A DNA stretch of 54,222 nt from an uncultured Acidiferrobacterales bacterium (GCA_964355495.1 CAYHES010000001.1:1-54222), one strand, 5' to 3'; positions 12,779 to 51,506 are shown, numbered from the stretch's first letter. Made by a program: numbers and translations. The notes: generated by a model not told the origin, from the sequence alone.

Positions 12779-13090
12779 ATTGCAAAAAATACCAAGACAA
12801 CATAATGGCGACGAAGCTCTTGTGGTGAATGACCAGCACTACGTCAACCGTGGAGAATTATACCTCGCTGTGTGTATGCTATGCGGACTATGTGCGCAGC
12901 GCGATATTGCTGCGTCATTTTATCATGCCATCTCTGCTGAGAAGCGCGAATGGCCTTGGCAGGCGTCGACTGTTTCCTGCCTGGTAGCTGATCCAGTAGC
13001 GATGCAGGCTGTGTCTGTCACTACTTTCATACCCTTGACGCTGATGGCGAATGCAACAGCGCCAGCCTCGTCGGTAGTTCTTTGATAGCT

Positions 13091-14584: not shown

Positions 14585-14615
14585 TCTGGGTACAAGCGGA
14601 TAACGGTAGTCAATC

Positions 14616-15878: not shown

Positions 15879-15882
15879 ACTC

Positions 15883-17025: not shown

Positions 17026-17589
17026 GATTGCTGTGCAATATTCTTTACTCGTGGCAGCTTCCTGTGCCGTGCTACTGAACGGTGGAATTACACAGCTCAG
17101 CTTGCCTAGGCTTTGTGTGGGCTGGGCTTGCCAAAGCGCATAGCTCAGATCGTGGCGCAAAGAGTTGACTGTATGCAGTCGAGGCTTATTGGGGAGAGGT
17201 GATTGATGTGTGCGATCAGACAAAGAATCTATTAAGTTAGCTTGGGCGGCTGATTGGTGCTTACGGATATGGAGCTGTATCGTGCTCGACTCCATCGATT
17301 TCAGTTCTAACAGCAAATGGTTTTGTATATTATGTTGACGGCAGTCCGGTGATGGCACAGGAAGATCCCCCCAACTAGGCTGTAAACGCTGTCAGCGATG
17401 GCTTGGGAGTATGTTGCTGTGACACGGAATATTCGCTAAATGGCGGCCTGACTGGAGTTAATGCAAATGGCCATGGTAGTTTACAAAATGCATGGTCGAA
17501 CAGGCTAGACGGATAGACATGTATGGGCGCAAATGGATCGACAGCTCCCATGCCATTCTAAGACTGTGTGACCTGAGGAGAATATAGAA

Positions 17590-19654: not shown

Positions 19655-20814
19655 AGATACTCTTTCCCTATATGGCACGCTGGCATGCCATGAACTGGAG
19701 CCGATATCACTCACTGCTGTATGCGCTCGCCGATGCCGGTCATGAGATACACGTAATGCAACCGCCGCCGCTCAAGTCAGCGGAGACGAATTTTCAGGAA
19801 ATCACAAGCCGCGGTCACAAAAACATCATCATCCATGATGTACCGCTCACCCCGTGGCTGTGGAACCTGCGTCTGCCGCTCGAGAAGTTGTTCAAGAAAG
19901 CCTATTATTCATTTGCCAGTTACCAGGACGCCAAGCGGCTTATCGCGGAGCACGAGTTAAACGTCGTGCTTCTTTACAACATCCCGCAATACCGGTTTAT
20001 CTCGCTCGACTCCGTGGTGCTGGTGTTCGACTACGCCGACGACTATATCGACATGCTTTCCTACGAACTGGGCCGACTGGATATCCGTTTGCTGCGGAAT
20101 CTGGCGCAATGGCTGCTGAACAACATGATGTCGCGGGCCACGCTGACGTTCTCCATATCGAACATCCTGGCACGACAGGCGCTGGGTAATGTCCATATCA
20201 TCCCAAACGGCGTAAGCCTGTCCAAGGCAGCAACACCGCCTTCCGTCCCCATCCAGACGGTGCGTCATGGCGGACTTCCCGTCGTGGGCTTTATCGGTTC
20301 CTTCGAATATTTTATCGATTTAGACCTCATGGTAGAGGTGGCCAAGGCCATGCCGGACATCCACTTCCTGTATGTGGGGACCGGACGGGAGTGGAAGCGG
20401 GTGGAGAAGCGCATCCACGACGAAAATGTCCACAACGTGCAACTTACCGGAGGCGTGCCTCACGACCAGGTGTTTGAGTACATCCGCGCCATGGATATCT
20501 GCCTTAATCTTTTTACCAAAATACCGGTCTCTCATCGCGCTTGCCCCATCAAGCTCTTTGAGTACCTGAGCCAGAAAAAACCGGTTATTTCCACGCGCCT
20601 TGACGAACTTGTGTACATCGATGACGGCTTTCTGTATTACGGAGATAACGCTGCCGAGGTCTCGGCCCGGATTCGCTCAATACTCAATGACCGTGGCGCC
20701 GCCGAGGCGACCGCGCAGAGCGGCTACCACAAGACTGTTGCAGATTACACATGGGACCGTATTGCCGAGCGCTTTGCTGCTCTGGTGTCAGAGAAACTGC
20801 CTCGTACTGCATGA
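19651..20814 (+). CDS. Glycosyltransferase (GT4-like)
   Basis: There is an ATGA start/stop overlap with wecB. The C-terminal region VGFIGSFEYF...CPIKLFEYLSQKKPVIS fits the GT1/GT4 fold. Confidence 0.7.
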   Translation: MKILFPYMARWHAMNWSRYHSLLYALADAGHEIHVMQPPPLKSAETNFQEITSRGHKNIIIHDVPLTPWLWNLRLPLEKLFKKAYYSFASYQDAKRLIAEHELNVVLLYNIPQYRFISLDSVVLVFDYADDYIDMLSYELGRLDIRLLRNLAQWLLNNMMSRATLTFSISNILARQALGNVHIIPNGVSLSKAATPPSVPIQTVRHGGLPVVGFIGSFEYFIDLDLMVEVAKAMPDIHFLYVGTGREWKRVEKRIHDENVHNVQLTGGVPHDQVFEYIRAMDICLNLFTKIPVSHRACPIKLFEYLSQKKPVISTRLDELVYIDDGFLYYGDNAAEVSARIRSILNDRGAAEATAQSGYHKTVADYTWDRIAERFAALVSEKLPRTA

Positions 20815-21045
20815 ACGTGATTATGGTCCATGCGGCGTTGAGCGCCAACCATTGTTATGCATCGCTGGTCCGGTATGGCTTGTGCCCTATCGGTCATGTC
20901 TTGCCTGCCGTTTGCCGCATGCATGGTGGTAAGCCGCTACACTAAGTATGTCGCTTATTCTGCAATGCTATGACGAGCCCGGTGACGCAGCCTGGCTATT
21001 TGTGCGGGCCCTCACGAGGGAAGTAGAGCAGCAACAAATGGTGTA

Positions 21046-22164
21046 ATGATGATGGTATTCCTGGTGTTGGCGTTATTAGCATTTGCTGCAGCAGCCATTT
21101 GGCTGACGCTGCGCTCACGCAACATGCAGATCTGGATCGGTCCGTACCTGCGCCGTGCCTTGTTCGGTCGGCGGCGGTCGGGAGATGGTCCGGTCCATGT
21201 GTATTTCTGCTTTGCGGATCACTATGAGCCTTTCTGGGGAAAAGTCGATACGGAGACAGCGCGCGCGCGAGTGGCGCGGTGGGTGCGGGAGTACCCGCCT
21301 TTAGCTCTGAGACACCGTGACAGTGATGGTCGTTCACCGCAGCATAGTTTTTTCTATCCCGAGGAGGAGTATGACGCACAGATATTGGAGTGGTTATCTG
21401 GCATGTGCCGGGATGGTCATGGCGAGGTAGAAGTACATCTTCATCACGATGATGACACGGCAGATAATTTGCGACATACATTGACACGCTTCAAGTCGTT
21501 GTTGCATGAGAAGCATGGTTTGCTGCGGCGAGACCCCGATACTGGAGAGATTGTCTATTGCTTCATCCATGGCAATTGGGCGCTGGATAACTCCCGCCCC
21601 GATGGTCGCTGGTGTGGCGTGGACAATGAAATCAGTGTGTTGGTAGAGACTGGCTGCCGATGCGACATGACCATGCCATCAGCGCCGAGCGACACCCAGA
21701 CTAGCAAGATCAACTCCATATATTTTGCGCATGGCCGACCAGGACATCGCAAGTCGCATGATCATGGGCGAGACGCATCAGTCGGTGATTGGACCAAGGA
21801 CGGCGAACTTCTGCTTGTACAGGGACCCTTGGCGCTCAATTGGCAAGAGCGCAAGCTGGGAGTGATGCCGCATATCGAGTCGGGCGAGATTTCGCGAGAT
21901 GCACCACCAACGCTGAATCGGGCACGTTTGTGGGCGGATTGTGGGGTAACAATCCGCGGTGCCGAAAACCATGTGTTCGTGAAGGTACACACGCACGGTG
22001 CGGAGGATGGCACGACTGAAATGTTAATGAACGGTGGCTTTGAAAGATTATGGACGAGCATCGAGAATCTGTACCGGGATCGCCCGGGCTATGCGCTCCA
22101 CTATGTTACTGCCTGGGAGATGTACCGCAAGATCAATGCGCTGTGCCACGGTTTGAGAGGTTGA
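21046..22164 (+). CDS. Uncharacterised membrane-anchored protein with His/Asp-rich motifs
   Basis: It has an N-terminal transmembrane segment (MMMVFLVLALLAFAAAAIWL) and the motifs FADHYEPFWG, EVEVHLHHDDD and FIHGNWALDNS. I recognise no named family. Confidence 0.5.
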   Translation: MMMVFLVLALLAFAAAAIWLTLRSRNMQIWIGPYLRRALFGRRRSGDGPVHVYFCFADHYEPFWGKVDTETARARVARWVREYPPLALRHRDSDGRSPQHSFFYPEEEYDAQILEWLSGMCRDGHGEVEVHLHHDDDTADNLRHTLTRFKSLLHEKHGLLRRDPDTGEIVYCFIHGNWALDNSRPDGRWCGVDNEISVLVETGCRCDMTMPSAPSDTQTSKINSIYFAHGRPGHRKSHDHGRDASVGDWTKDGELLLVQGPLALNWQERKLGVMPHIESGEISRDAPPTLNRARLWADCGVTIRGAENHVFVKVHTHGAEDGTTEMLMNGGFERLWTSIENLYRDRPGYALHYVTAWEMYRKINALCHGLRG

Positions 22165-22224
22165 TGCGGTGAATGAGCCACAACTCATCAAGCCGCACCA
22201 CCGCCACGGTTTTTCTGCTTGAGC

Positions 22225-22872
22225 ATGCACCACGAGAAATTCTCCATGCGAAAACTCGCTAAACGGTTTTTACGCCAGGCACTGAATCCTGTCGTCAACT
22301 TTCGATCAGGTAGCGACCGGACATTCCTGACATTTGATGATGGGCCGCATCCGCAGCGAACTCCGGCCGTTCTGGATCAGCTGGAGAAACATGGTGTTAA
22401 GGCGACATTCTTCATGATTGGTGCCGAGGCTGAGAAATATCCCGAGATCGCACGGCGAGTTGTCTCCGCAGGGCATACCATCGGATACCACTCCCATAAC
22501 CACCCACACATGCGCTCACTATCCGTAGCGCGGCAGTTTGAAGAGCTACGTGGGGTTAACCAGTTGTCTCAGTTGCTCGGGAGGCGTGTATCGCTCTATC
22601 GCCCCCCCTACGGAGAGTTGACAATCCCGCAGCTTGGCTGGTGTCTCATACACGGTTTGCGTGTTGTAATGTGGTCGATTGAGACGGGTGATTCGTTTGC
22701 GCACAGTGCTGACGAAGTGGCGAAGCGCATGAAAACCACGTCTGTCCAGCATGGGGACATCGTGCTCTTGCACGACGATACGGCATCGGCAATTGAGAGT
22801 TTGCCGCTTATCCTCGGCAATTTGCAGAATGCTGGTTTAGTGCTGGACCGGCTGCCAGAACGAAGATATTGA
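22225..22872 (+). CDS. Polysaccharide deacetylase (NodB domain)
   Basis: Contains FLTFDDGPHPQRTPAVLDQLEKHGVKATFFMIG and GYHSHNHP. The start is ATG 22225; the longest ORF begins at TTG 22219. Confidence 0.85.
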   Translation: MHHEKFSMRKLAKRFLRQALNPVVNFRSGSDRTFLTFDDGPHPQRTPAVLDQLEKHGVKATFFMIGAEAEKYPEIARRVVSAGHTIGYHSHNHPHMRSLSVARQFEELRGVNQLSQLLGRRVSLYRPPYGELTIPQLGWCLIHGLRVVMWSIETGDSFAHSADEVAKRMKTTSVQHGDIVLLHDDTASAIESLPLILGNLQNAGLVLDRLPERRY

Positions 22873-22886
22873 GCTTGGAACTTGCC

Positions 22887-24050
22887 ATGCCATCCCCGCA
22901 CATCGTGCACACTATCAGTGCGTTCGACGTATTCGGTCCTGAGAAGACGGTAATAAACGAATGTCTCGCACTGCAGAAAATCGGTTGGAGAGCCACAATT
23001 GTCAATTTCTGGGACGTGCAAGATACGCCCTTTTCCCGGAAACTCGCGGGTAGCGGTATTCCCTATCAGTGCATACCGTCACGGAGTAAGTTCGATATGC
23101 ACGCCATCGCGGCGCTGCGCGCCCTGATTGAAAACGATCAGGGCGTCGCTGTGCACAGCCATGGCTACAAGGCAGACCTGTACTCACTTATTGCCGCCCG
23201 TCGCGCGCGTCGCCCGGTAGTAACGACAGTGCATGGTTGGACCTCGGAAAATATGAAAGTACGTCTATATGAGCGCCTCCAGGCCTTCACTTGGAGGTTC
23301 TTTGACCGAGTAATCTGTGTATCGCGCAACTACCGGAATGTGGCTAATGCGCGAGGCGTGCCCGGTGACAGGCTTGTGCTGATTGCCAATGCGATCAGAG
23401 CCAATTATGCCGAGCGTCCGGGTGAGCGTGAACGCGAAGCAATGCGAGCAGAGTTTGACGTTCCGGCTGGGCACGTTGTCGTTGCCATTATCGGCCGGCT
23501 TGGTATCGAGAAAGCGCACGCCCTCTTTGTCAAAGCAGCGCAACGTATCTTGAAGGACGGCGGGAAGGCCGTCTTTCTTATAATAGGGGAAGGGCAGGAA
23601 CGGGATAATATCGAAGCACTTATCGAACAGTACGGTCTTGGCAGGCAAGTAAAGATGCTCGGCCATCGAGACGATGTCGCGAGACTCTTTGCAATCATCG
23701 ACATACTCGCCATCTGCTCGCTGCGCGAAGGGTTGCCGAATGTGCTGCTCGAAGCGATGCTGAATGGCGTGCCAGCCGTGGCAACGGGGGTCGGCGGTAT
23801 CCCGGACGTGGTGCACACGGGTATCAATGGGATTCTTACGCCTCCCGGTCAGGAAGAGGACTTCATACGTGCGCTCGCGGAGCTGGTATCGCAACCCGAG
23901 AAACGCAACGCGTTGGGCGTCGCGGCACGCGCCAGCATTGAACAGGAGTATCTGTTTGATCGGCGCATGGAACGAGTTATGGCGCTGTACATGCAGGTTC
24001 TGCGCCACGCGGCAACAACTGATGCAGCGGGTAGGTCACTCGACCGATAG
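22887..24050 (+). CDS. Glycosyltransferase family 4
   Basis: Contains SLREGLPNVLLEAMLNGVPAVATGVGGIPDVVHTGINGIL. ATG 22887 is preferred to TTG 22869. Confidence 0.85.
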   Translation: MPSPHIVHTISAFDVFGPEKTVINECLALQKIGWRATIVNFWDVQDTPFSRKLAGSGIPYQCIPSRSKFDMHAIAALRALIENDQGVAVHSHGYKADLYSLIAARRARRPVVTTVHGWTSENMKVRLYERLQAFTWRFFDRVICVSRNYRNVANARGVPGDRLVLIANAIRANYAERPGEREREAMRAEFDVPAGHVVVAIIGRLGIEKAHALFVKAAQRILKDGGKAVFLIIGEGQERDNIEALIEQYGLGRQVKMLGHRDDVARLFAIIDILAICSLREGLPNVLLEAMLNGVPAVATGVGGIPDVVHTGINGILTPPGQEEDFIRALAELVSQPEKRNALGVAARASIEQEYLFDRRMERVMALYMQVLRHAATTDAAGRSLDR

Positions 24051-24058
24051 GGGCGTTT

Positions 24059-25210
24059 ATGCTGATCGATATAATGTTGTGGATGTTAGCAGCTGGTTTG
24101 TGGGGAATGTTCGGCTACCATGCATTGCTGGCAGCGTGGGGCTGGCGTTTGCAGCCGGGACCGCCGCCGGATGAATCGCTTCGTTTTGCAGTTCTAATTC
24201 CAGCACACAATGAAGAGATTAGTTTGGGGAAATTGCTGGATTCTCTGCGTTCTGCACACTACCCGAGTGTACAGCTGCTAGTTCTGGTTGTGGCCGATCA
24301 CTGTACTGACGCGACAGCGCGTGTGGCACGGGAGGCCGGTGTGGCGTGCCTGGAACGTGCAAGCGGTCCGCGCGGCAAGGCGGCTGCACTTTCTGAAGGC
24401 ATCGCCTGGTTGCGCACGCGGAATGAACGATTTGATGTGCTGGCGTTTTTTGATGCAGACAATATTGTGGATCCGGCATTCTTCCAGTATGCCGCGGGCC
24501 GAATTGCCGCCGGTGCGCCAGTTGTACAGGGTCACGTCGGCATTGCCAATCACGACGTATCCCTGTTCGCACGTCTCAACTACATCAGCGCCATGGTGGT
24601 GAATCGTTTCAAGGAGCTTGCACGCAGCCAAGCTGGGCTCACCTGCCAGTTGCGGGGACACGGAATGGCGTTCCGCCGCGATCTGGTAGATCGCTTCGAT
24701 TGGCAAGGTGATTCACTGGTAGAGGACAAAGGGATGGTGGTGCGACTGGTTCAGGCCGGCGAGCGCGTGGTGTGGGAGGATCGTGCCAAGGTCGAAAGCG
24801 TACTGCCCGTGAGTCTTCAGGAGGCTGCTGCGCAACGCCGCCGTTGGGCCGGCGGAAAGTCGTCGGTAGGGAAGGCGAGCGTACGTGCGCTCTTACGAAA
24901 GGCGTTCGTGGACCGGGATGCCGTGGCTCTGGATCTGGCGTTCGATTTCCTGATGCCTTCGTACGCGGTGCAGTTAAGTTTGGTATTCCTGGCAGTTGCC
25001 GTAGCGGCGCTGTTCGGCGGGCTGTCATCGGCGTCGTTCCAGGCGCTGCTGGTGTTAATGTTCGCCTATCTTCTGTACTTCTATCTCGGCAGCCGCCGGG
25101 GCGGTGTTCCCGGGCGCGTGTTTATGAGCTTCTTTATGGCGCCGTTCTATATTCTGTGGCGTACCTGGATACACCTAACGCGTCACTCCGGTACGCGCCG
25201 CTGGCGTTGA
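24059..25210 (+). CDS. Membrane-embedded family 2 glycosyltransferase with synthase-like motifs
   Basis: Contains VLIPAHNEE, FFDADN, LVEDKG and AAQRRRWAGG (a Q-x-x-R-W-type motif). Transmembrane segments sit at both ends. Confidence 0.75.
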   Translation: MLIDIMLWMLAAGLWGMFGYHALLAAWGWRLQPGPPPDESLRFAVLIPAHNEEISLGKLLDSLRSAHYPSVQLLVLVVADHCTDATARVAREAGVACLERASGPRGKAAALSEGIAWLRTRNERFDVLAFFDADNIVDPAFFQYAAGRIAAGAPVVQGHVGIANHDVSLFARLNYISAMVVNRFKELARSQAGLTCQLRGHGMAFRRDLVDRFDWQGDSLVEDKGMVVRLVQAGERVVWEDRAKVESVLPVSLQEAAAQRRRWAGGKSSVGKASVRALLRKAFVDRDAVALDLAFDFLMPSYAVQLSLVFLAVAVAALFGGLSSASFQALLVLMFAYLLYFYLGSRRGGVPGRVFMSFFMAPFYILWRTWIHLTRHSGTRRWR

Positions 25211-36184: not shown

Positions 36185-37105
36185 CTACTTCTGAACTTTC
36201 AGTGGATTAAGAGAAGATTCTTCCCAGCCCGTGACCACGTCACCGCTGAAAAGAATGCGCGATGATCCATACGCCCATTCTCGCTCGGTCTGGCGCCAAG
36301 GTGTCCCCTGTATGGTTCTGACCTCGGCCTTGGTCGAGCCGCGTTGAATGAAGGCTTTCCCGGTGGATACAGGATCGATCTCAAGGCTTGCGTTAAGCGG
36401 GTTGTCCGGATGGCTGTCCCAGCGGGAGACGCTGCCATTAACGAAGTACACACGCGATTTTCCGTAATGCCAGACTCCATTCTCGGTTGTTGAGGGGATT
36501 CCCTGAATCGCGTAAACCTCGCCAAGCTTTGATCCGCGCGTAAAGAATCGATCTGCGGGATGTGGCGTTACTTTGTCGCCAGGCTCCGGTCGTGGCACAT
36601 CCTGCACCGCGATATTCGGCAATGTGCCGATATCAAGACCATGTTCGACCGGATCATTCAGAAACCAGAAATAGAGCAGTAAGGTAATAACGGTCAGAAT
36701 TGCGATCGTCTTCCATTGAGTGGGTTCGACCGGGATTGATGTTGAGCTGCGAGTATGGCTATGACTCTGAATATTCGTGGCTGTTACGTCGGCTGCGGTC
36801 GCTTGGCCTGTATGCTCGGGCGGTGTTTTTGTTTCTGGCGGTTTTGCCTGGGCAGCTGGTGCAGGCGTTGGTTTGGTGGGCGTCGAACCGTGTTTCCGAT
36901 AGTAGTCAGCCAAGGTTTTGTATGCCCTGGTGATCTCCATGGTTCTTTCTTCAGCAATTTTTCGGTTGTTACTGTCGTGTTGGAAGTGATCCGGATGCCA
37001 TTTCTTGATCAAAGCCTTATATGCACCACGAATATCACCCCAACTTGAACCGGCCTGGAGGCCAAGGGCAGCATAACTGCGTGTATATCGCTCATCCATT
37101 GTCAA
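36185..37105 (-). CDS. J-domain (DnaJ-like) membrane protein with two tandem BamE/SmpA-OmlA-like C-terminal repeats
   Basis: The J domain reads YAALGLQAGSSWGDIRGAYKALIKKWHPDHF. A Pro-rich linker and a transmembrane segment (WKTIAILTVITLLLYFWF) follow. Two repeats then fit RGS..EV..IQG.P....W.YG.SR..F....V..W....NPL. Confidence 0.75.
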   Translation of the reverse strand: MTMDERYTRSYAALGLQAGSSWGDIRGAYKALIKKWHPDHFQHDSNNRKIAEERTMEITRAYKTLADYYRKHGSTPTKPTPAPAAQAKPPETKTPPEHTGQATAADVTATNIQSHSHTRSSTSIPVEPTQWKTIAILTVITLLLYFWFLNDPVEHGLDIGTLPNIAVQDVPRPEPGDKVTPHPADRFFTRGSKLGEVYAIQGIPSTTENGVWHYGKSRVYFVNGSVSRWDSHPDNPLNASLEIDPVSTGKAFIQRGSTKAEVRTIQGTPWRQTEREWAYGSSRILFSGDVVTGWEESSLNPLKVQK

Positions 37106-37685: not shown

Positions 37686-38309
37686 ATGCGTAACGGTTTA
37701 CTGATCCTTGGCATAATTTTAAGCGGGCTTCTTGGAGCGGGCTGTGCCGGGACAACGGTTCCGGATACAGATAGTCAAGGGGCGTTCACCTGGGAACAGG
37801 AGGGTGATTACCGGATTGGCGCGGATGATCGGCTACAAATCACTGTGTGGCGGAATCCAGAGCTTTCGGCCACTGTACCTGTCAGGCCCGATGGGAAGAT
37901 TTCGGTTCCGCTGATCGGCGATGTCATGGCCGGAGGTAATACCCCCGAGCAAGTGGCGGCCTCGATCAAGCAGAAACTGACAGCTTATATCCGTGAACCG
38001 AACGTGGCCGTAATGGTGGTGGAACTTCGCAGCCATGAGTTCATTTCACGCGTGCGGGTGACAGGCGCGGTCCGTACGCCGCGATCCATGCCTTTCCGTC
38101 AGGGCATGACAGTGCTGGATGCTGTTCTGGAGGCCGGTGGACCCAATGAGTTCGCAGCACCGAACCGGGCCAAGCTCTATCGAAAAGGAAAGGACAAGAC
38201 AGATGTGGTCGATGTCGAGCTCGGCGATATCCTTAACAAAGGGAAGCTGCAGACAAACATTACCCTGAAGCCAGGGGATGTCGTGACTATCCCCGAGCGG
38301 TTGTTCTGA
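37686..38309 (+). CDS. Wza-like polysaccharide export lipoprotein (PEP-CTERM system EpsE-type)
   Basis: The lipobox is LLGAGC. Contains YRIGADDRLQITVWRNPELS and VRPDGKISVPLIGDVMAGGNTPEQV. A GAGGA ribosome-binding site lies upstream of ATG 37686. Confidence 0.85.
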   Translation: MRNGLLILGIILSGLLGAGCAGTTVPDTDSQGAFTWEQEGDYRIGADDRLQITVWRNPELSATVPVRPDGKISVPLIGDVMAGGNTPEQVAASIKQKLTAYIREPNVAVMVVELRSHEFISRVRVTGAVRTPRSMPFRQGMTVLDAVLEAGGPNEFAAPNRAKLYRKGKDKTDVVDVELGDILNKGKLQTNITLKPGDVVTIPERLF

Positions 38310-38328
38310 ACGGCAAGAGTAACTACCT

Positions 38329-39870
38329 ATGTCAACCCTTCATCCTGAGCTCATCCGCAAACTCCTCATCGGCGAGCTATTTAATTCGCGCAAGACAGCT
38401 GTTGGGATATTTGTCGTTGTGGTGCTTGCTCTAGTGGTCGCTGGTCTCGTCTGGCCAAAAGGATACGTGGCGTCGACCACAATTCTGGTGGACGAGAAAA
38501 ATATCATCCAGCCCCTGATGCTGGGCGCGGCGGTAACCACAGAGGTTGCGGATCGTTCCCGACTTGCCAGGGAGACGATTTTTGGCAGAAAGGTCATGAC
38601 CCAGCTTCTCACTGACACAGGCCGGTTGAAGGAAAGCTTTTCGCCGGAAGAGAAGGATAAGTTGTTCAAGAAGCTGACGAAGCAGACGGCTATCAGCAAT
38701 GTAACTAGAAACATCATCAAGATCGAATACCGGGACGATGATCCGGAGAATGCATTTTTAACGACCAAGCGCTATGCCGATCTGTTCATCGCTGAAGCAC
38801 TCGGCACCAAGGCCGCTGAAAGCCAGGCGGCATTCGATTTTATTGACAAGCAGGTGCATGAGTACCACGAAAAGCTTGTTCAAGCAGAAGAACAGCTCAA
38901 AGAGTTTCGCTTGGCCAATGCGGATGCGCTTCCGGGAACGGATACGGATATCGGAACACGGCTGAGCGCCCAGCAGACACGAATCGAGCAGTCTGCCCAG
39001 GAACTTAAGGAAGCGGAGATCAAGAAACGTTCCCTTGAGAAACAGCTTTCTGGTGAAGCGGAGGTCGCCACGGTTCTGTCGCGCGAAGGACAATACCGGA
39101 CACGAATTGCGGAACTTCAGTCTCAGATGGAAACGTTGCGCCTCAGTTATCACGACACCTACCCAGACATTGTTCGACTCCGTCACCAGATCGCTGATCT
39201 AAACGATGCGATCGCAGTTGATCGGAAACAGCGCGAAGCAGCCAAGGCGAGCGGTCGGGTGATTATCGATGACAGTGTTACCAATAATCCAATGTACCAG
39301 CAGCTGAAGCGCGATCTCTCGCAGACTCAGATTACTATTGATACCCTGAATGCGCGCATCATCGAGGCCAAGCGTCAGATGAGTAGTACACTTGAACGCG
39401 GTAAGCGTGTACACGGTGGCGAAGTAACACTTGCCGAGCTTACCCGCGATTATCAGGTCAATCGCGACATTTACCAGGACCTGCTAAAGCGCAGGGAAAA
39501 CGCGCGCGTGTCCATGAATCTTGACAAGGAAAAGCAGGGCCTCTCATTCAGAATTCAGGAGCCGGCGACATTGCCGATTGATCCAAGCGGTTTGCTTTTC
39601 AAGCATTTTATTATTGCAGCGCTGGTACTTGGTGTGCTTGTTCCTGTAGGGCTGGTATATGCCAAGTTGCAAATCGACCCGAGGATTCGGGTCGGGAGCA
39701 TGGTAGCGGAGCGCAACAATTTGCCGTTGCTAGCCGTAATTCCGCATCTTTGGCAGCAGACTGAAATCCAGGTTGTCCGCCAGGAGATACAGTGGTTGTA
39801 TCTGATCGCTGCAGGAACACTGACGGTCATGGCGCTGCTTGCTACGTTGCGCATTGTGCGGATGATTTGA
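38329..39870 (+). CDS. Polysaccharide chain-length determinant (Wzz/PCP, PEP-CTERM locus type)
   Basis: It has an N-terminal transmembrane segment, a long coiled-coil periplasmic region and a C-terminal transmembrane segment. It lies immediately upstream of the BY-kinase-like gene. Confidence 0.8.
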   Translation: MSTLHPELIRKLLIGELFNSRKTAVGIFVVVVLALVVAGLVWPKGYVASTTILVDEKNIIQPLMLGAAVTTEVADRSRLARETIFGRKVMTQLLTDTGRLKESFSPEEKDKLFKKLTKQTAISNVTRNIIKIEYRDDDPENAFLTTKRYADLFIAEALGTKAAESQAAFDFIDKQVHEYHEKLVQAEEQLKEFRLANADALPGTDTDIGTRLSAQQTRIEQSAQELKEAEIKKRSLEKQLSGEAEVATVLSREGQYRTRIAELQSQMETLRLSYHDTYPDIVRLRHQIADLNDAIAVDRKQREAAKASGRVIIDDSVTNNPMYQQLKRDLSQTQITIDTLNARIIEAKRQMSSTLERGKRVHGGEVTLAELTRDYQVNRDIYQDLLKRRENARVSMNLDKEKQGLSFRIQEPATLPIDPSGLLFKHFIIAALVLGVLVPVGLVYAKLQIDPRIRVGSMVAERNNLPLLAVIPHLWQQTEIQVVRQEIQWLYLIAAGTLTVMALLATLRIVRMI

Positions 39871-39871
39871 C

Positions 39872-40825
39872 ATGAGCAAGATCGAAAAGGCCCTGAGTCG
39901 CGCACGCAATGAAAAGGGCCTTGTTGTCGTCGGGAGCCGTCAACGGAGCGGCGAACCTGACCAACCAGACAGCCAGAGTCGCGATCTTGTAGCGGCGGAA
40001 GGTGCGACTGCAATAAGCAAGTCGCGCGTCGATTCCACCGCAGCGATCGCTCGGATGAACGAGCCGAGTTTGCGCGACATGTCTGAACTTGCGCTACAGC
40101 GCATTATTTATCCGGACATGGCTGAGAACAGTACAGTACAGGCCTTCCGTGAGATCCGCACACGAATACTGCAGAAGACCAAAGGACAAAACTGCATCAT
40201 CATGGTCACTTCTGTGACCGGGGATAGCGGTAGTTCGTTTGTCGCGACAAATCTGGGCGTGGCGTTCTCTTTTGATGCCGGCAAGACGGCACTTCTTGTA
40301 GATTGTAATCTGCGCAATCCGGGATTACAGAAGCTTTTTCCAGATAAGGTTCCACTCGGTATTACGGACTACCTCGAGAAAGAAGATTTGGATGTCGCAG
40401 ATATTATCCATTCTATCGGCATAGAGCGGTTGCGAGTAATTCCCGCTGGTGACCAACGCGAAATCCCGAGTGAGTATTTTACGTCGATCAGGATGAAGCA
40501 GATGCTAAGCAGCATTCGACAGCGTTATGCCGAACGATTCATTCTCATTGATGCCCCACCTGTGAGTGAAACGGCGGATACCCAGATTCTGGCTGAACTG
40601 TGCGATTACATCCTCTTGGTGGTCCCATACGGAAAGGTTACAAATGGGCAAGTAGAGGCCAGCATAAAGTCGATCGATAGTAAGAAGCTGCTTGGTATCG
40701 TTTTTAATAATGAGCCGAATGTGCCAAGCATTGACTGGAAAGAAATGCTAAGAACCTCCTATGTACCTTTATGGAATTGGCTTCTTCGGTTAAACAGAAC
40801 AATTAGAAATGCAGCGCATACTTGA
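39872..40825 (+). CDS. BY-kinase-like (MinD/ParA-fold) protein of the PEP-CTERM locus type, with an atypical Walker A
   Basis: Walker A' (ALLVDCNLRNP) and Walker B (FILIDAPP) are present. The Walker A position reads VTSVTGDSGSSF, with no Lys. There is no C-terminal Tyr cluster. Confidence 0.7.
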   Translation: MSKIEKALSRARNEKGLVVVGSRQRSGEPDQPDSQSRDLVAAEGATAISKSRVDSTAAIARMNEPSLRDMSELALQRIIYPDMAENSTVQAFREIRTRILQKTKGQNCIIMVTSVTGDSGSSFVATNLGVAFSFDAGKTALLVDCNLRNPGLQKLFPDKVPLGITDYLEKEDLDVADIIHSIGIERLRVIPAGDQREIPSEYFTSIRMKQMLSSIRQRYAERFILIDAPPVSETADTQILAELCDYILLVVPYGKVTNGQVEASIKSIDSKKLLGIVFNNEPNVPSIDWKEMLRTSYVPLWNWLLRLNRTIRNAAHT

Positions 40826-42164
40826 TAGATCACGCACTATCACTTCAAAGTCTGGCACGGCAGTTATTATCAGCCTTCTGGTTGCTGGCCATTTGATGCA
40901 GACCTCCCATGCTGGTGAGTTCGCCTATGGGGTCGGCTATCTCGGCGAGCACAGCGATAACATTCGACGCACTCCGACAGACCCTCAAAGTGAATGGGTC
41001 AACTCTGCAATTGCGGGAGTTGTTTACCTTGAAAATGGCCCGGCACTCGATGCCCATTTACTGGCGCAGGCAGAGTACCGTGATTACAAGAATGATATTT
41101 ATAACGATGGACCGGTTTATTATGCCGACGCGTCCTTGCTCTGGCGAATCACACCGCAGCGCCTCAATTGGGTTTTCGTTGATCGTTACAGCCAAGTCAC
41201 GCGGGATGTCACGCTTCCTGATACACCCGACAATCGTGTAAATGCCAACGTACTCGACACAGGGCCGGATTTTTACATACGATTTGATCAAGTTAATACA
41301 CTGGTGCTGGGATTGCGCTATGGGAACGCCTCCTATAGCGAAGGTGATCTTGATAGCAATCGCTACGGCGCCTCTGCACGATGGCAATATGCATCAACAG
41401 CGGAAACAACCTATTCACTGAACTACGAAGCTGAACAGGTCAAGTATGACAACGAGATTCTGAATGAAAACGTCATGCGGCAGGATTTATTCATCAGAGC
41501 AGAAAGACGCCAAGCCCGCGCACGATTTCGCATGGATCTCGGTGCCACTCGCTTAGATCGGGACCGAACCGGTGGAACGTCCGGAAATCTCGCACGTTTG
41601 GAGTGGTCGCAGCAGCTTACCTCTGTGTCGACAGCCGGTATCCAGCTTGCACGTGAATATCTTGATGCTGGGACAGTATTGCTCTCCACGGCAACGAGTC
41701 CGACCCCTGCACCGGGCGCACCACCTTCTTCATCTGCAACAGGTGAAGTAACTAACGACTTCTTCTACACGAAGCGTGCAGAGGCTTACTATAATCGTAG
41801 CGACAGTAGTTATGGTCTGAGTGCGAGGGCCTACTATCGTGACTTGGATTACGAAATGTCACCGCAGGATCGTCAGGAAGCCGGTGGAAGGATTGATGTT
41901 ACATATAATCCATCCAGCGTTCTGGCAACAACGGTATACGGGAGTTACCTCGGCGTACAATATCAGAGCATTACCCGGGATGATCAGGAGAGCGAGGCTG
42001 GGATCCGTTTTCTGTACAGGCTCAACAGAAATCTCAGCACCATACTTGAGGGGCGGAAGACGTGGCGTAACAGCACAGATGTATTACAAGAATATACTGA
42101 CAGAAGGGTGCTGTTCTCGCTGCTATACAGCAGCAGCCCGTTGTTTGCCCCCGTAAGGAGATGA
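40809..42164 (+). CDS. Outer-membrane beta-barrel protein (PEP-CTERM system-associated type)
   Basis: It has a signal peptide ending SHA-GE, an alternating aromatic/polar pattern rich in Y, N, R and D, and a C-terminal ...VLFSLLYSS region. Confidence 0.65.
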   Translation: MQRILDRSRTITSKSGTAVIISLLVAGHLMQTSHAGEFAYGVGYLGEHSDNIRRTPTDPQSEWVNSAIAGVVYLENGPALDAHLLAQAEYRDYKNDIYNDGPVYYADASLLWRITPQRLNWVFVDRYSQVTRDVTLPDTPDNRVNANVLDTGPDFYIRFDQVNTLVLGLRYGNASYSEGDLDSNRYGASARWQYASTAETTYSLNYEAEQVKYDNEILNENVMRQDLFIRAERRQARARFRMDLGATRLDRDRTGGTSGNLARLEWSQQLTSVSTAGIQLAREYLDAGTVLLSTATSPTPAPGAPPSSSATGEVTNDFFYTKRAEAYYNRSDSSYGLSARAYYRDLDYEMSPQDRQEAGGRIDVTYNPSSVLATTVYGSYLGVQYQSITRDDQESEAGIRFLYRLNRNLSTILEGRKTWRNSTDVLQEYTDRRVLFSLLYSSSPLFAPVRR

Positions 42165-42173
42165 CTGGCGGCC

Positions 42174-43244
42174 ATGTATCTTGATTATTTCAAGCTCAGG
42201 GAATTTCCGTTCCGGCTGACGCCGGATACCGAGTTTCTGTACATGAGTAATGTGCACGCACGCGCCAAGGCCTACATGGACTACAGCGTGTGGAACCGCG
42301 AGGGCTTCGTGGTCATCACCGGTGAAATCGGCTGCGGCAAGACCATCCTTATCAAGAAACTCTTATCCGAACTGGAGGAAGACAACTTCTTGGTGGCCAA
42401 GATCTTCCAGACCCAGCTCGATGAGGTCGAGTTTCTGCAAGCGGTGCTGGTTGAGTTCGGGCTCAATCCGTTCAATGCCAAGAAGGTCGAGCTGATCGAC
42501 ATGCTCAACACCTTCCTGGTGGACAGTTACCGCGAGATGAAACAGTTGGTGCTGATCGTCGACGACGCACACAATCTGAGCCTGAAGGCACTGGAAGAGA
42601 TACGCATGCTCTCCGGTCTTGAAACCCAGAAGGAGAAAGTCTTGCATGTCATTCTGGTCGGTCAGCCGCAACTCAACGTGATGCTGGATGCGCCGGAGCT
42701 GGAGCAGCTGGTGCAGCGCGTGCGCCTGCGTTTCCACGTCAGGCCGTTGGCGCCGGACGAAACGGCAGAGTATATCGCCCATCGTCTCAAGGTAGCGGGC
42801 GCTACACGCACAGATTTATTTACTCTAGAGACTATGTCGGTGATCTACAAGTACACAGGCGGCGTGCCGCGTCTTATCAACACTCTGTGCGACACAGCGC
42901 TTACCGTTGCCTACGCCGATAGTCTTCCGACAGTCACAATCGATGTTCTCAAGTCGGCACTTGACGAATTGCAGTGGGTACCGTTTGAGCGGCGCGCTGG
43001 TGGGCGGCTTGCGAAGCCCGCAGCGAAGGGCGACCGTTCCCATACGGTGCGTGAGCAGGACAAGCTGATCGCCAACATCGGAAACCGCCTGAATCAGATG
43101 GATAGCTTGGTGCCGTCACTGTCGATGATTTCCGACCGCATGGGGAACATTGAGGCGTTATTGACGAGTATCGTAACTCTCTTGAAGCAGGGTCGGGCGG
43201 AGCGGGTTGTCCCACCGCGCAAGGTCGGCGGGAAGGACCACTAG
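42174..43244 (+). CDS. ExeA/GspA-like AAA ATPase (PEP-CTERM locus secretion ATPase type)
   Basis: Contains YLDYFKLREFPFRLTPDTEFLY, Walker A GEIGCGKT and Walker B LVLIVDDAH. Confidence 0.85.
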   Translation: MYLDYFKLREFPFRLTPDTEFLYMSNVHARAKAYMDYSVWNREGFVVITGEIGCGKTILIKKLLSELEEDNFLVAKIFQTQLDEVEFLQAVLVEFGLNPFNAKKVELIDMLNTFLVDSYREMKQLVLIVDDAHNLSLKALEEIRMLSGLETQKEKVLHVILVGQPQLNVMLDAPELEQLVQRVRLRFHVRPLAPDETAEYIAHRLKVAGATRTDLFTLETMSVIYKYTGGVPRLINTLCDTALTVAYADSLPTVTIDVLKSALDELQWVPFERRAGGRLAKPAAKGDRSHTVREQDKLIANIGNRLNQMDSLVPSLSMISDRMGNIEALLTSIVTLLKQGRAERVVPPRKVGGKDH

Positions 43245-43258
43245 GCAAAGTATGCCCC

Positions 43259-45232
43259 ATGTGTGGTATCGCTGGGATTCTCAACCTGACGGCCAATCGC
43301 CCACCGAGTGAAACCGAACTCGGTGCAATGATTGGTCAACTGCATCACCGTGGCCCGGATGGCTACGGCTATTTTTCGGATACACAGGTTGGCCTTGCTC
43401 ATGCGCGACTCAGCATCATCGATATTGCCGGCGGCAAGCAGCCGATCCACAACGAAGACCGGACCATCTGGGTCAGTTTCAACGGCGAAATCTTCAATTA
43501 CATCGAACTGCGCGCGATTCTTGAACAACAGGGTCATCGTTTCTACACGCACTCCGACACCGAAGTTATCGTGCACCTGTATGAACAGCACGGCGATGAC
43601 TTTGTCCAGCACCTGAACGGCCAGTTCGCGATCGCGCTCTGGGACCAGCAGCGCCGGCGCCTGGTGCTGGCCCGAGACCGCGCCGGTATCCGCCCACTGT
43701 TCTACACGCAGACGCGCAGCCGGTTGCTGTTTGCCTCCGAGGTCAAGGCACTGTTCGTGCATTCCGAACTTCCGCGCCGACTCAATCTTGAGGCGCTTGC
43801 CCAGGTTTTCACCTACTGGTCGCCGCTCGCGCCAGCGACGGTTTTCGAGGGCGTCACGGCGCTGCCTCCAGGACACATCTTGGTGGCAGAAAACGGTCGC
43901 ATCCAGACGCGGTGTTACTGGGACTGGTTATTTCCCGAACCGCCCTTGCCCAAAGAACGGCCTGCCGCAGAATATGCAGAAGAGTTGCGTGCTTTGCTGA
44001 TCGATGCGGTGAAGTTGCAGTTGCGCTCGGACGTCCCGGTAGGTGCATACTTGAGCGGCGGGCTCGATTCTTCGATTATCACCTCGTTGATCAAGAACTT
44101 TACGGATGTGCCACTGCGTACATTCTCGGTAACGTTTGATGACGCAGAATATGACGAGAGCATCTTCCAGCAGGAACTGGTGGATTACCTCGATACCCAG
44201 CACACCGCGTTACGTTGTACCACGGCGGATATTTGTGATGCGTTCCCGAAGGTGATCTGGCACACCGAGACCCCGATCGTGCGCACGGCGCCGACGCCGC
44301 TCATGCTGCTGTCCGCCAAGGTGCGCGCTGAGGGCTACAAGGTGGTGCTGACCGGGGAAGGGGCGGACGAGGTGTTCGGTGGCTACGACCTGTTCAAGGA
44401 GGCCAAGATCCGGCGCTTCTGGGCGCGCCAGCCACACTCAAAAATGCGCCCGCGTATCCTCGAACGGCTCTATCCGTATCTCAAGCATTCGCCTGCATCT
44501 GGGCGAGCGTTTACCGAAAATTTCTTCAGCCAGGGTATGGAGCACAAGGACCGGGCGTACTTCTCCCATATTCCTCGCTGGACGACGACAAGACGTATTG
44601 CCCAATTTTTCTCGCCGGAGATGCAGCGCACAGTGAGTGGCTGGGACCCGTATGCTGCCATTATGCAAACACTGCCGCCAGGTATCGAACGCTGGATTCC
44701 GCTTGGCCGCGACCAGTATGTCGAGGCGCACACCCTGATGGCCGGCTACCTGCTCTGCTCCCAGGGCGATCGCGTGGCCATGGCCAACTCCATCGAGGGG
44801 CGTTTTCCATTTCTGGATCACCGCGTGATCGAATTCGGCAACCGCCTGCCGTCGCGTTGCAAACTGATGGGCCTCACCGAGAAATATATTTTGAAGAAAT
44901 CTATGACTGGATTGTTGCCAGAATCGGTGCGTACACGCACCAAGCAACCCTACCGCGCACCCGACAGCCAGAGCTTCTTCCGCAACGGGGTGGCGGCAGA
45001 TTATGTGGCAGAACTGTTCAGCGAACGGCGCCTGCGCGAGGCGGGCTACTTCGATCCGCGCGTGGTGGCCAAGCTTTACGAGAAGTGCCGTGCCGGACGC
45101 GCCATCGGCTTCGCTGACAACATGGCCTTCGTCGGCATCCTGTCCACCATGCTGGTGGATGAGCAGTTCATCCGGCCGGTTGCGTTGACTGGGACGATCG
45201 CTCGGCCTTTTGCCAAGCAGATTTCGGCTTAG
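43259..45232 (+). CDS. Asparagine synthase (glutamine-hydrolysing) family amidotransferase (exosortase-A-associated amidotransferase type)
   Basis: It has the MCGIAGIL Ntn-glutaminase start and the synthetase-domain PP-loop-like motif YLSGGLDSS. Confidence 0.9.
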   Translation: MCGIAGILNLTANRPPSETELGAMIGQLHHRGPDGYGYFSDTQVGLAHARLSIIDIAGGKQPIHNEDRTIWVSFNGEIFNYIELRAILEQQGHRFYTHSDTEVIVHLYEQHGDDFVQHLNGQFAIALWDQQRRRLVLARDRAGIRPLFYTQTRSRLLFASEVKALFVHSELPRRLNLEALAQVFTYWSPLAPATVFEGVTALPPGHILVAENGRIQTRCYWDWLFPEPPLPKERPAAEYAEELRALLIDAVKLQLRSDVPVGAYLSGGLDSSIITSLIKNFTDVPLRTFSVTFDDAEYDESIFQQELVDYLDTQHTALRCTTADICDAFPKVIWHTETPIVRTAPTPLMLLSAKVRAEGYKVVLTGEGADEVFGGYDLFKEAKIRRFWARQPHSKMRPRILERLYPYLKHSPASGRAFTENFFSQGMEHKDRAYFSHIPRWTTTRRIAQFFSPEMQRTVSGWDPYAAIMQTLPPGIERWIPLGRDQYVEAHTLMAGYLLCSQGDRVAMANSIEGRFPFLDHRVIEFGNRLPSRCKLMGLTEKYILKKSMTGLLPESVRTRTKQPYRAPDSQSFFRNGVAADYVAELFSERRLREAGYFDPRVVAKLYEKCRAGRAIGFADNMAFVGILSTMLVDEQFIRPVALTGTIARPFAKQISA

Positions 45233-49125: not shown

Positions 49126-50406
49126 TTAGAGACGCCAAATTCTGAGACCGGCGGCACGCAGTGCAGCCGTGTCGAAAGCAGACTTTACGTCAATGAAGCA
49201 TCCCTTGGCAGCAATCTTCTTCGCTAACCTGTCGGGACTCATCTTCAGGAAATCCGAGTGCGCGACCGCGGCGACCATGGCATCCGCCACTGGCAGATCA
49301 TCCCACGACACCAACTCAATGCCGTATTCATGGTGGGCCTCTTCCTTGAGCGGCACCGGATCGTGCACGAATACCTCGATGCCATACGTCCGCAGCTCAG
49401 CGATCACGTCGATGACGCGCGAGTTGCGTAGGTCCGGCACGTTCTCCTTGAAAGTGAGGCCAAGGACGTTGACCTTGGCGCCTTTGATGGAGCTACCGGA
49501 GGCGATCATCTTCTTGACGGTTTGCTCGGCAATGAACTTGCCCATGTTGTCGTTGATGCGCCGTCCGGCTAGGATCACTTCCGGGTGGTAACCGATCATC
49601 TCCGCCTTGTACGTGAGATAGTAGGGGTCGACGCCAATGCAGTGACCGCCGACCAGGCCGGGGCGGAAGGGCAGGAAGTTCCACTTGGTGCCGGCGGCCT
49701 GCAGTACTTCCAGCGTGTCGATACCGAGCTTGTTGAAGATCAGCGCCAGCTCGTTCATGAGCGCGATATTGAGATCGCGCTGGGTGTTTTCGATGACCTT
49801 GGCGGCTTCGGCCACGGCGATGCTGGAAGCGCGGTGCACCCCGGCTGTGATAACGGAACTGTAGAGATTGGCGACAGCGTCCAGGGTAGCGGCGTCGTCA
49901 CCCGATACGACTTTCACAATCCTCGTGAGCGTGTGTTCCTTGTCGCCCGGATTGATGCGCTCGGGTGAATAGCCGATGTGAAAATCCTTTTTCCACTTCA
50001 GGCCAGAATTTTGTTCGAGCACCGGAATGCAGACCTCCTCGGTGGCGCCTGGATAGACGGTTGACTCGTAGATCACGATCGCGCCCTTTTTCATGTTCTG
50101 GCCGACCGTGCGGCTGGCGCCCACGAGAGGGCTGAAGTCGGGCAGATGGGCGTTGTCGATCGGGGTGGGGACGGCAACAATGATGTAGTCGGCAGCAGCG
50201 AGCGCAGTGGGATCGGTGGTGGCCTTGAGTTTCGTGGCTGCGCGCAGCGCCTCACTCGACACTTCACCGGTGGGGTCTACGAAGTTCTGATAGCTGCGTA
50301 CCTTTTCGGTGCTCAGGTCGAAGCCGATGGTTTCGCGGATCTTTCCGAATTCCACGGCGAGCGGCAGGCCGACATATCCGAGCCCGACAACGGCAATAGT
50401 GCTCAT
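49126..50406 (-). CDS. Nucleotide-sugar 6-dehydrogenase, TviB/WbpO/CapL-like (UDP-N-acetylhexosamine dehydrogenase)
   Basis: MSTIAVVGLGYVGLPLAVEFGK matches the TviB/WbpO N-terminus. GGHCIGVDP carries the catalytic Cys. The start is taken at ATG 50406 rather than the longest ORF. Confidence 0.8.
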   Translation of the reverse strand: MSTIAVVGLGYVGLPLAVEFGKIRETIGFDLSTEKVRSYQNFVDPTGEVSSEALRAATKLKATTDPTALAAADYIIVAVPTPIDNAHLPDFSPLVGASRTVGQNMKKGAIVIYESTVYPGATEEVCIPVLEQNSGLKWKKDFHIGYSPERINPGDKEHTLTRIVKVVSGDDAATLDAVANLYSSVITAGVHRASSIAVAEAAKVIENTQRDLNIALMNELALIFNKLGIDTLEVLQAAGTKWNFLPFRPGLVGGHCIGVDPYYLTYKAEMIGYHPEVILAGRRINDNMGKFIAEQTVKKMIASGSSIKGAKVNVLGLTFKENVPDLRNSRVIDVIAELRTYGIEVFVHDPVPLKEEAHHEYGIELVSWDDLPVADAMVAAVAHSDFLKMSPDRLAKKIAAKGCFIDVKSAFDTAALRAAGLRIWRL

Positions 50407-50576
50407 TTTAGAATATCCCCGAAAGATTGACTGCTGAAGAGGCTGTTTGTTTCGGGCCAGTTTAACCGAAGAAATTGCGGTATTCCAACGCCGGCAGCAT
50501 GTCACCACATGGTAACCTGCATATACTATGAATTCGTGACGGCGAATGGTGTAATCCAACAAGGCGAGGTGGCACG

Positions 50577-51506
50577 TTGAACAGGAAGGTGTTGATTACC
50601 GGCGGGGCGGGATTCATCGGCTCACATCTGGCCGAGCATCTGCTCGCGGCCGGAAACAGCGTGCGGGTGCTGGATAACCTGTCGACCGGCAAACGCGAGA
50701 ATTTGCCCGCGCATCCGCAGCTTGAGTTCGTGCAGGGCGATATCCGTGACAAGCACCTTGTCTCCGAATCCGCTCACGGCATGGACGCCATTGTGCATTT
50801 GGCCGCAGTCGCGTCCGTGCAGGCGAGTGTGGATGATCCCACTGGCACGCATGAGACCAATTTCGACGGCACCCTGTATCTGCTTGAAGCCGCGCGCAAG
50901 GAAAACATCAGGCGCTTTCTCTATGCCAGTTCGGCCGCCGTGTATGGCGACAATACGCGTCTGCCGCTGGTGGAAGAGGAAATTCTCAATCCGTTGTCGC
51001 CGTATGCCGCCGACAAACTGGCCGGTGAGTACTATTTGCGTTTTTACCATGCGAAGTTCGGAATCGAGACGACGGCATTCCGGTTCTTCAATATTTTCGG
51101 GCCGCGCCAGGATCCGTCTTCACCCTATTCGGGAGTAATCAGCATTTTCATCGAGCGAGTCAGCCGCGGCGAACCGGTCACCGTGTTCGGCGATGGTCGG
51201 CAGACGCGCGATTTCGTTTATGTCGGCGATCTGGTGAAGTTGCTGGCGCAGGCGCTGACGCGTGCCGAAACGGCCGGGCAGGTGATTAATGTCGGCCGTG
51301 GCAAGCAATGCTCGCTGCTCGAGCTGCTGGAGGCGCTGGAGAAGCTTGCTGGCAAACCGGTGGAACGCCGATTCGCAGCAGCACGCCTGGGCGATATTGT
51401 GCATTCACGTGCGGATATTTCCCGACTCGTGCGCCTGCTGGGCAAGGCGCCGGAGACCGACATCGTTACCGGGCTTGGCGAGATCTTGCGGCACCGGAAC
51501 GGCTGA
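50577..51506 (+). CDS. NAD-dependent epimerase/dehydratase (extended SDR, possibly WbpP/TviC-like)
   Basis: Contains VLITGGAGFIGSHL and the catalytic motif SPYAADK. It is divergent from the dehydrogenase gene. It has a TTG start. Confidence 0.8.
   Translation: MNRKVLITGGAGFIGSHLAEHLLAAGNSVRVLDNLSTGKRENLPAHPQLEFVQGDIRDKHLVSESAHGMDAIVHLAAVASVQASVDDPTGTHETNFDGTLYLLEAARKENIRRFLYASSAAVYGDNTRLPLVEEEILNPLSPYAADKLAGEYYLRFYHAKFGIETTAFRFFNIFGPRQDPSSPYSGVISIFIERVSRGEPVTVFGDGRQTRDFVYVGDLVKLLAQALTRAETAGQVINVGRGKQCSLLELLEALEKLAGKPVERRFAAARLGDIVHSRADISRLVRLLGKAPETDIVTGLGEILRHRNG

Follow-up and report, generated by a model that had tools for sequence, protein, structure and literature searches.

What does an 'XrtA/PEP-CTERM-associated' export cassette do where no exosortase gene accompanies it? 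The question is raised by a 54,222-bp stretch of DNA from an uncultured Acidiferrobacterales bacterium (CAYHES010000001.1:1-54222 of GCA_964355495.1), which we call the window and which is the complete contig C1 of a 2.92-Mb metagenome-assembled genome (MAG; 336 contigs, 86.75% complete, estimated contamination 0.53%). At 37686-45232 a first-pass annotation had recognized a series of six genes known from XrtA loci, with no exosortase, EpsI or PEP-CTERM substrate gene in the window, and had proposed that either the sorting half of the system is encoded elsewhere or the organism keeps only the polysaccharide half; it also raised the possibility that xrtA-epsI had been deleted between the last two genes of the series. 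We consider it likely that the window holds a complete, self-contained Wzx/Wzy exopolysaccharide (EPS) locus, with an export module from an exosortase-independent lineage of this cassette. The module has the following features.

37686..38309 (+; open reading frame (ORF) from 37578): short (class-3, D1D2) outer-membrane polysaccharide export (OPX) lipoprotein; LGAGC lipobox; TIGR03027 207 bits (above the cut-off of 180)
38329..39870 (+): Wzz-like polysaccharide co-polymerase (PCP) without a kinase domain; GNVR domain; TIGR03007 352 bits (above 279)
39872..40825 (+): bacterial tyrosine (BY)-kinase-like protein, a predicted pseudokinase; TIGR03018 192 bits (below 231)
40809..42164 (+): outer-membrane beta-barrel, likely pore partner of the short OPX protein; PF10082 33 bits; TIGR03016 32 bits (below 91)
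42174..43244 (+): ExeA/GspA-like AAA ATPase; TIGR03015 290 bits (below 324); AAA_22 87 bits; Walker A GEIGCGKT
43245..43258 (+): intergenic spacer of 14 nt, gcaaagtatgcccc, the supposed deletion junction, between the ATPase stop codon TAG (43242-43244) and the AsnB ATG at 43259
43259..45232 (+): AsnB-type glutamine amidotransferase; N-terminus MCGIAG; TIGR01536 506 bits; TIGR03108 455 bits (below 817)

Profile scores and coordinates bear out all six genes in the order first read (Wza-like, Wzz-like, BY-kinase-like, beta-barrel, ExeA-like ATPase, AsnB-like), and the sequence confirms the 14-nt gap between the ATPase and AsnB genes. Of the export and priming models, TIGR03027, TIGR03007 and TIGR03013 score above their cut-offs here, and TIGR03018, TIGR03016, TIGR03015 and TIGR03098 below.

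Absence of the sorting genes, here and in relatives

Neither an exosortase-like ORF nor a PEP-CTERM tail (a PEP motif followed by a transmembrane segment and an Arg-rich end) was found within the window, as the first-pass annotation had stated. In searches of the whole MAG, the XrtA model (TIGR03109) gave no match, Pfam Exosortase_EpsH (PF09721) and EpsI/DUF3485 (TIGR02914/PF11984) gave none at E<=1, and PEP-CTERM (TIGR02595) gave a single match at E=0.88 (13 bits, cut-off 16). A regular-expression scan for PEP-like tails over 31,770 ORF tails of the MAG returned zero. According to tblastn searches of the MAG with the XrtA-system proteins of one relative (G031) and the XrtD-EpsI protein of another (G029), there is no exosortase, EpsI, FemAB or stp1, and PrsK, PrsR and PrsT find only generic histidine-kinase, NtrC-family and tetratricopeptide-repeat (TPR) matches (at most 39-42% identity over partial length). 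None of the accessory equivalogs TIGR03006, TIGR03019, TIGR03087 and TIGR03108 is above cut-off here. As positive controls, the XrtA model matches 12 of 41 relatives, PEP-CTERM is above cut-off in 13 of the 41 (1-4 matches each), and PF09721 scores 228-250 bits in G005 and G023. The first of the two proposed alternatives, a sorting half encoded elsewhere, thus failed the searches with XrtA, EpsI and PEP-CTERM models that could have revealed it, and the second, a polysaccharide half alone, is what this MAG holds.

Four congeners, one of them 97% complete, also have no exosortase above any family cut-off and no PEP-CTERM match. In one same-genus MAG (G004, 6% contamination), we note a sub-threshold Exosortase_EpsH match at the very start of a contig (C56:17-322; 21.7 bits, E=2e-4), which may come from a divergent, truncated exosortase or be noise.

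Given the completeness of 86.75% over 336 contigs, xrtA/epsI, PEP-CTERM proteins and PrsK/R/T might all be present in the unassembled 13% of the MAG; XrtA genes and export genes do lie on different contigs in G031, and the fragment in G004 sits at a contig edge. We regard this as very unlikely, since at least 10 independent markers are absent and not one, none of the four congeners has an exosortase over a family cut-off, and the orthologous module is found in a single-contig genome without an exosortase.

That genome (G037, 3.4 Mb) has the full gene order from EpsB2, the TIGR03013 priming transferase, to NadE, with no XrtA, PF09721 or PEP-CTERM match, and its proteins exceed the TIGR03013 and TIGR03027 cut-offs despite the lack of an exosortase. 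The same gene order is found in G025 and G027, the export cassette in G035 and a window-type ATPase in G032, all four of these genomes being 95-99% complete and without an exosortase. G006, G009 and G018 likewise contain the export cassette and no exosortase, and in 9 of 14 additional module-bearing genomes PF09721 finds no match. According to Haft (2006; PMC1569441), genomes without PEP-CTERM contain close homologues of the EPS-type families, EpsH being the one exception; with this precedent, the absence of an exosortase here is ordinary.

Exosortase-linked cassettes and the ATPase-AsnB junction

We took the canonical XrtA families to be NCBIfam TIGR03027/03007/03018/03016/03015/03006/03019/03087/03088/03109/02914/03108 together with PrsK/R/T. 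Every one of them is above cut-off in G031, which has an intact XrtA system on two contigs. The first contig reads OPX, Wzz, TyrK, barrel, ATPase, TIGR03006 deacetylase, TIGR03019 FemAB, TIGR03087 stp1, TIGR03088 stp2 and TIGR03108 amidotransferase, and the second reads EpsB2, PrsK, PrsR, XrtA/EpsI and PrsT. The canonical layout given in the first-pass annotation, which placed a deacetylase, a FemAB-like gene, a glycosyltransferase, xrtA and epsI between ATPase and amidotransferase, is therefore roughly right: the deacetylase and FemAB do stand there in G031, with stp1 and stp2, and XrtA/EpsI stand on the other contig.

The window has in common with the canonical system the five-gene order OPX, Wzz, TyrK-like, barrel and ExeA-like ATPase as well as the TIGR03013 transferase, but it contains no XrtA, EpsI, PEP-CTERM cargo, PrsK/R/T, FemAB, stp1, TIGR03006 or TIGR03108. 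The proteins of the XrtA-linked cassette of G031 share only 26-48% identity with those of the window, whose kinase is a predicted pseudokinase.

A second kind of exosortase locus is found in G005, G023 and G029, where PrsK-like genes and one for a PrsT-like TPR protein adjoin an exosortase-EpsI fusion that lies 14-30 kb from an export cassette of its own. The G029 fusion (L053 7225-8796) is XrtD (TIGR04152 588 bits, cut-off 400; about 190 bits with the XrtA model), and the exosortase copies of G005 (L036) and G023 (L049) are 44-47% identical to it, the XrtD scan having covered G029 only. These XrtD (VPLPA-CTERM) loci come from the same bacterial order as the window and share its cassette logic (OPX, Wzz, TyrK, ATPase, PrsT-like TPR, AsnB-like) but belong to a paralogous clade, keep the Walker A lysine of the kinase and have the XrtD-EpsI fusion linked within the distance given. 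Identity between the XrtD-linked cassette and the window is 31-33% for OPX, about 20% for Wzz, 25-30% for TyrK and 40-44% for the ATPase. The ATPase tree puts the XrtD-linked copies on a long branch as a clade of their own (99% SH-aLRT) and leaves the G031 copy linked to XrtA outside the 97% clade of the window. These same genomes also have a window-type module, either on another contig or, in the single-contig genomes G023 and G029, at a distance of 150 kb and 128 kb, respectively, from the exosortase. Rather than a stripped XrtA system, the module represents a third, separate cassette lineage; some genomes carry both it and a paralogous cassette linked to an exosortase.

Loci L069-L135 (Steroidobacteraceae, Woeseiaceae and others) carry ATPases with 53-62% identity to that of the window and no other module gene within 10 kb, so the ExeA-like ATPase family has another genomic context as well; Steroidobacteraceae and Woeseiaceae homologues of this sort made up most of what a broad ATPase-profile scan returned.

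The supposed deletion was addressed by synteny. With tblastn, the order EpsB2, J-domain gene (-), OPX, Wzz, TyrK-like, barrel, ATPase, AsnB, ligase and NadE is found to be kept. The ATPase is directly followed by this type of AsnB in at least 13 related genomes (55-75% amino-acid identity), including the single-contig genomes G029 (L055) and G037 (L042), with a gap that ranges from an overlap to 130 nt. The window AsnB shares only 34% identity with the true TIGR03108 protein of G031 (1077 bits) and, judged by sequence, is a different paralogue from the XrtA-type amidotransferase.

In favour of a recent loss of deacetylase, FemAB, glycosyltransferase, xrtA and epsI between ATPase and amidotransferase, leaving the 14-nt junction, are the window-type loci L022, L029, L047 and L052, where a TIGR03006-like deacetylase and FemAB immediately follow the ATPase, and L068, where the two are flanked by the ATPase and an AsnB of the window's type. 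On the other hand, in L032 and L034 the AsnB-ligase-NadE block has the ATPase on one side and a TIGR03006-like deacetylase on the other, an arrangement that speaks for inserted or shuffled cassettes and not for loss of xrtA, and no exosortase was found within 10 kb of any window-type locus. Because the ATPase-AsnB adjacency is conserved across window-type loci and the AsnB is not the TIGR03108 paralogue, we reject a deletion at 43244/43259 and give it next to no chance. Since blocks are present or absent and vary in position, the region 3' of the ATPase is a variable slot, and it never holds an exosortase in the loci examined.

A predicted pseudokinase, a separate barrel and the rest of the locus

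The protein encoded at 39872-40825 does not have the hallmarks of a BY kinase (Walker A GK[ST], Walker A' DxD and a C-terminal tyrosine cluster): its Walker A reads GDSGSS, with no lysine where GEGK[ST] is expected, DCN stands at Walker A', and the last 30 residues include just one tyrosine. Among window-type orthologues, none of 24 has the Walker A lysine, and tyrosines in the tail number 0-1. In the XrtA-linked paralogues (L057, L033) GEGK[ST] is present and the tail has 5-7 tyrosines; the lysine is also retained in XrtD-linked paralogues, and most XrtA- and XrtD-linked proteins have GEGK[ST]. Without the lysine and the tyrosine tail, the 'kinase' fits a predicted BY pseudokinase, in the sense defined for EcpK (PMC12004946), throughout the lineage.

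EcpK belongs to the EPS pathway of Myxococcus xanthus, in which a short OPX protein, EpsY, and a beta-barrel, EpsX, form a composite translocon and the pseudokinase scaffolds the PCP EpsV (PMC9601211, PMC9603273, PMC12004946, PMC12819527); for EpsX/EpsY, physical interaction and the requirement for the barrel were addressed by pulldown and knock-out experiments (PMC9601211). The window resembles this pathway in its Wzx/Wzy pair, a PCP without a kinase, a stand-alone BY-like protein without catalytic and Tyr residues, a D1D2/class-3 OPX protein, an adjacent barrel and the lack of an exosortase. The OPX protein (about 187 aa when mature) consists of Poly_export and a single SLBB domain without the Wza_C outer-membrane helix, and a large barrel is encoded in the same operon, as in composite class-3 OPX/beta-barrel systems. 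Sequence similarity is remote, however (86 bits with the EpsY model, cut-off 320), and the window lineage has the ExeA-like ATPase as an additional conserved member. An AF2 model of the barrel, made from 14 orthologues, has about 20 strands (pLDDT 81.7, pTM 0.73), compared with 18 in the M. xanthus barrel, and a signal peptide is predicted; the barrel has no specific AlgE-like match, and its Foldseek matches are all large outer-membrane barrels (TonB-dependent receptors, Occ porins) at a TM score of 0.45-0.52.

The Wza-Wzb-Wzc system of the Escherichia coli group 1 capsule is alike in its OPX plus PCP-2 logic and Wzy-dependent export. It differs in that Wza crosses the outer membrane by its own C-terminal helix, Wzc is fused to an active kinase with a Tyr cluster, and there is a Wzb phosphatase; unlike the window, it has neither an ExeA-like ATPase nor a separate barrel pore. 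The ATPase shares a homologous AAA_22 domain with ExeA/GspA of type II secretion (Aeromonas), but the window protein, with intact Walker motifs, is cytoplasmic and has no transmembrane segment or periplasmic peptidoglycan-binding domain. Its role can therefore be suggested only by inference.

The rest of the window contains the following features.

6048..7454 (+): priming polyprenyl glycosylphosphotransferase of the TIGR03013 'XrtA/PEP-CTERM system' family (EpsB2); 560 bits (above 393)
7673..25210 (+): repeat-unit biosynthesis block (acetyltransferases, GDSL esterase, deacetylases, APH-like kinase, Wzx, Wzy, GT4 and GT2 glycosyltransferases, WecB)
13082-14584 (+): Wzx flippase; Polysacc_synt 43.7 bits
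14616-15878 (+): Wzy polymerase; Wzy_C 62 bits
25221..32493 (-): four exported enzymes (two Ig/purple-acid-phosphatase-like metallophosphoesterases, two right-handed beta-helix (pectate-lyase-like) proteins)
36185..37105 (-): J-domain membrane protein, divergent from the export module; PF00226 39 bits; one hydrophobic segment
45250-46779 (+): acyl-CoA ligase; TIGR03098 486 bits (below 592)
46791-47078 (+): acyl-carrier-protein-like protein, 95 aa
47117-48106 (+): NadE-like ATP-pyrophosphatase
48103-49017 (+): HemK/PrmC-like methyltransferase
49126..51506: TviB-like UDP-GlcNAc 6-dehydrogenase (-) and TviC-like epimerase (+), 2-acetamido uronic acid supply; NF011729 493 bits, NF011728 185 bits

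A priming transferase, Wzx, Wzy, a PCP and an OPX protein, the parts of a Wzx/Wzy pathway, are all encoded in the window. WecB scores 471 bits with TIGR00236, and the deacetylases of the biosynthesis block reach 48 bits with TIGR03006 (cut-off 276). About 28.7 kb of biosynthesis and exported-enzyme genes (7455-36184) separate the TIGR03013 transferase gene from the J-domain gene, two genes that adjoin in relatives, so the variable part of the locus occupies a different slot in the window. The position of the J-domain gene is kept in most window-type loci across the order, and its product could serve as a membrane co-chaperone or regulate the export module. From AsnB to the methyltransferase (43259-49017) the genes form a tight co-directional cassette, of which AsnB, ligase and NadE are jointly present or jointly absent across related loci.

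The four exported enzymes inside the locus, one of them with a 'choice-of-anchor Q' domain, invite the idea that an unrecognised non-exosortase sorting enzyme and its signal replace XrtA/PEP-CTERM, with the metallophosphoesterases and beta-helix proteins as cargo; some ORFs of the window (21046-22164 and 10958-12778) are unannotated. We looked for a C-terminal sorting tail, hydrophobic or basic, in the four enzymes at 25221-32493 and found none, and hidden PEP-CTERM cargo among them was rejected on this ground. Across relatives, no conserved polytopic protein of unknown function goes with the module, and the embedded genes are not kept in related loci. A replacement of this kind is, in our estimate, highly improbable.

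Under the exosortase-independent reading, the TIGR03013 transferase would prime undecaprenyl phosphate, and the glycosyltransferases, acetyltransferases and deacetylases would build a repeat unit for which the TviB/TviC-like enzymes may provide an acetamido-uronic acid. Wzx would flip the unit and Wzy polymerise it. The Wzz-like co-polymerase, presumably organised by the catalytically dead BY pseudokinase as a scaffold and not by tyrosine phosphorylation, would pass the chain to the short periplasmic OPX lipoprotein, which may dock, in a physical complex, below the separate barrel of about 20 strands as the outer-membrane pore. The cytoplasmic ExeA-like ATPase would be an accessory of the export machine and not of protein sorting, and the AsnB-like enzyme would work with the ligase, carrier-protein, NadE-like and methyltransferase cassette, probably in an amide-type decoration.

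Origin of the locus and its meaning

Besides the incompleteness of the MAG, which leaves 13% where an exosortase locus could lie, several points weigh against an exosortase-independent lineage at this locus. The window-type module and an exosortase co-occur in G023, G029, G005 and G010, where a functional link in trans is possible. Three window proteins pass the cut-offs of NCBIfam 'XrtA system' equivalogs; the same models match the exosortase-free, single-contig G037, so they are not specific to XrtA genomes. For the barrel, Foldseek offers generic matches without favouring AlgE, PgaA or EpsX, and the genes of the window-type lineage are known from sequence alone. Finally, the composition of the contig is atypical (GC 54% vs 61.5% for the genome; tetranucleotide distance rank 8/114), and mis-binning would weaken the claim on this organism, not the claim on the module.

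The locus may be foreign to its bin, as a laterally acquired EPS island (likely) or a mis-binned contig (less likely), and we put the chance of this at somewhat short of even. From 6 to 49 kb, GC is 49-55% against 61.5% for the genome, and the tetranucleotide distance is near the 95th percentile of fragments. The module was not found in any of the four congeners. Wzz is 61-66% identical to that of family-f6 (Sulfuricaulis/Sulfurifustis-type) genomes vs 45-54% to that of its own GTDB family, and it is with f6 genomes that the window ATPase shares its 97% clade. Pointing the other way, the composition at 49-54 kb is typical of the genome, and of the DNA from 34 to 54 kb only two short pieces, 50.6-51.5 kb and 53.8-54.0 kb, both at the right end of the contig, matched any of the four congeners, namely the same-genus G004 at 83-84% nucleotide identity. 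The estimated contamination is as low as given above, and other low-GC (50-54%) contigs are found in the MAG (C19, C27, C31, C69 and C88), including polysaccharide contigs (C19, C31). The locus is probably an EPS island gained by lateral transfer and set in a native flank; such an acquisition is compatible with a self-sufficient module and would even argue for one.

Two more AsnB paralogues are encoded on C19 and a GT4-like match lies on C31, which suggests additional polysaccharide islands in this MAG. Near the contig end, a gene of the malate/lactate dehydrogenase (MDH/LDH) family (52773-53696, +), the sole one in the MAG, shares 45-48% identity with the MDH of each relative, the congeners among them, and a peptide-pattern search of 185,579 species genomes found no closer match. 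It may be a divergent paralogue or xenologue. An identity of at most 48% to any relative's MDH could be counted towards a foreign contig; as a binning marker, we rejected the gene as uninformative, being that distant from everything.

An exosortase-independent lineage remains the reading we prefer. The five-gene cassette and the TIGR03013 transferase persist without an exosortase, which argues for a role in polysaccharide export and not in protein sorting, for the ATPase and the barrel as well. A bolder proposal, which we put forward as speculative and rather doubtful, is that the cassette diverged long ago into at least three lineages (an XrtA-linked one with an active kinase, an XrtD-linked one, and an exosortase-free one with a pseudokinase that is mobile and self-sufficient), in the last of which the ExeA-like ATPase would drive the co-polymerase and the OPX/barrel assembly cycle instead of tyrosine phosphorylation. 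If so, the ATPase (TIGR03015) and barrel (TIGR03016) of exosortase loci would be assigned to polysaccharide export and not to protein sorting.

Given Haft (2006), a specialist is unlikely to be greatly surprised by these results. Modestly new are the recognition of the whole five-gene cassette, ATPase and barrel included, as a distinct conserved exosortase-free lineage, the clade-wide pseudokinase that marks it, and the finding that XrtA-named models are not specific to exosortase genomes. The 'XrtA/PEP-CTERM system' names in NCBIfam should thus not be taken as evidence of a sorting system. Through its clade-wide pseudokinase, this lineage of proteobacteria is connected with the phosphorylation-independent mechanism that was recently proposed for Myxococcus, for which cultured sulfur oxidisers are possible test beds.

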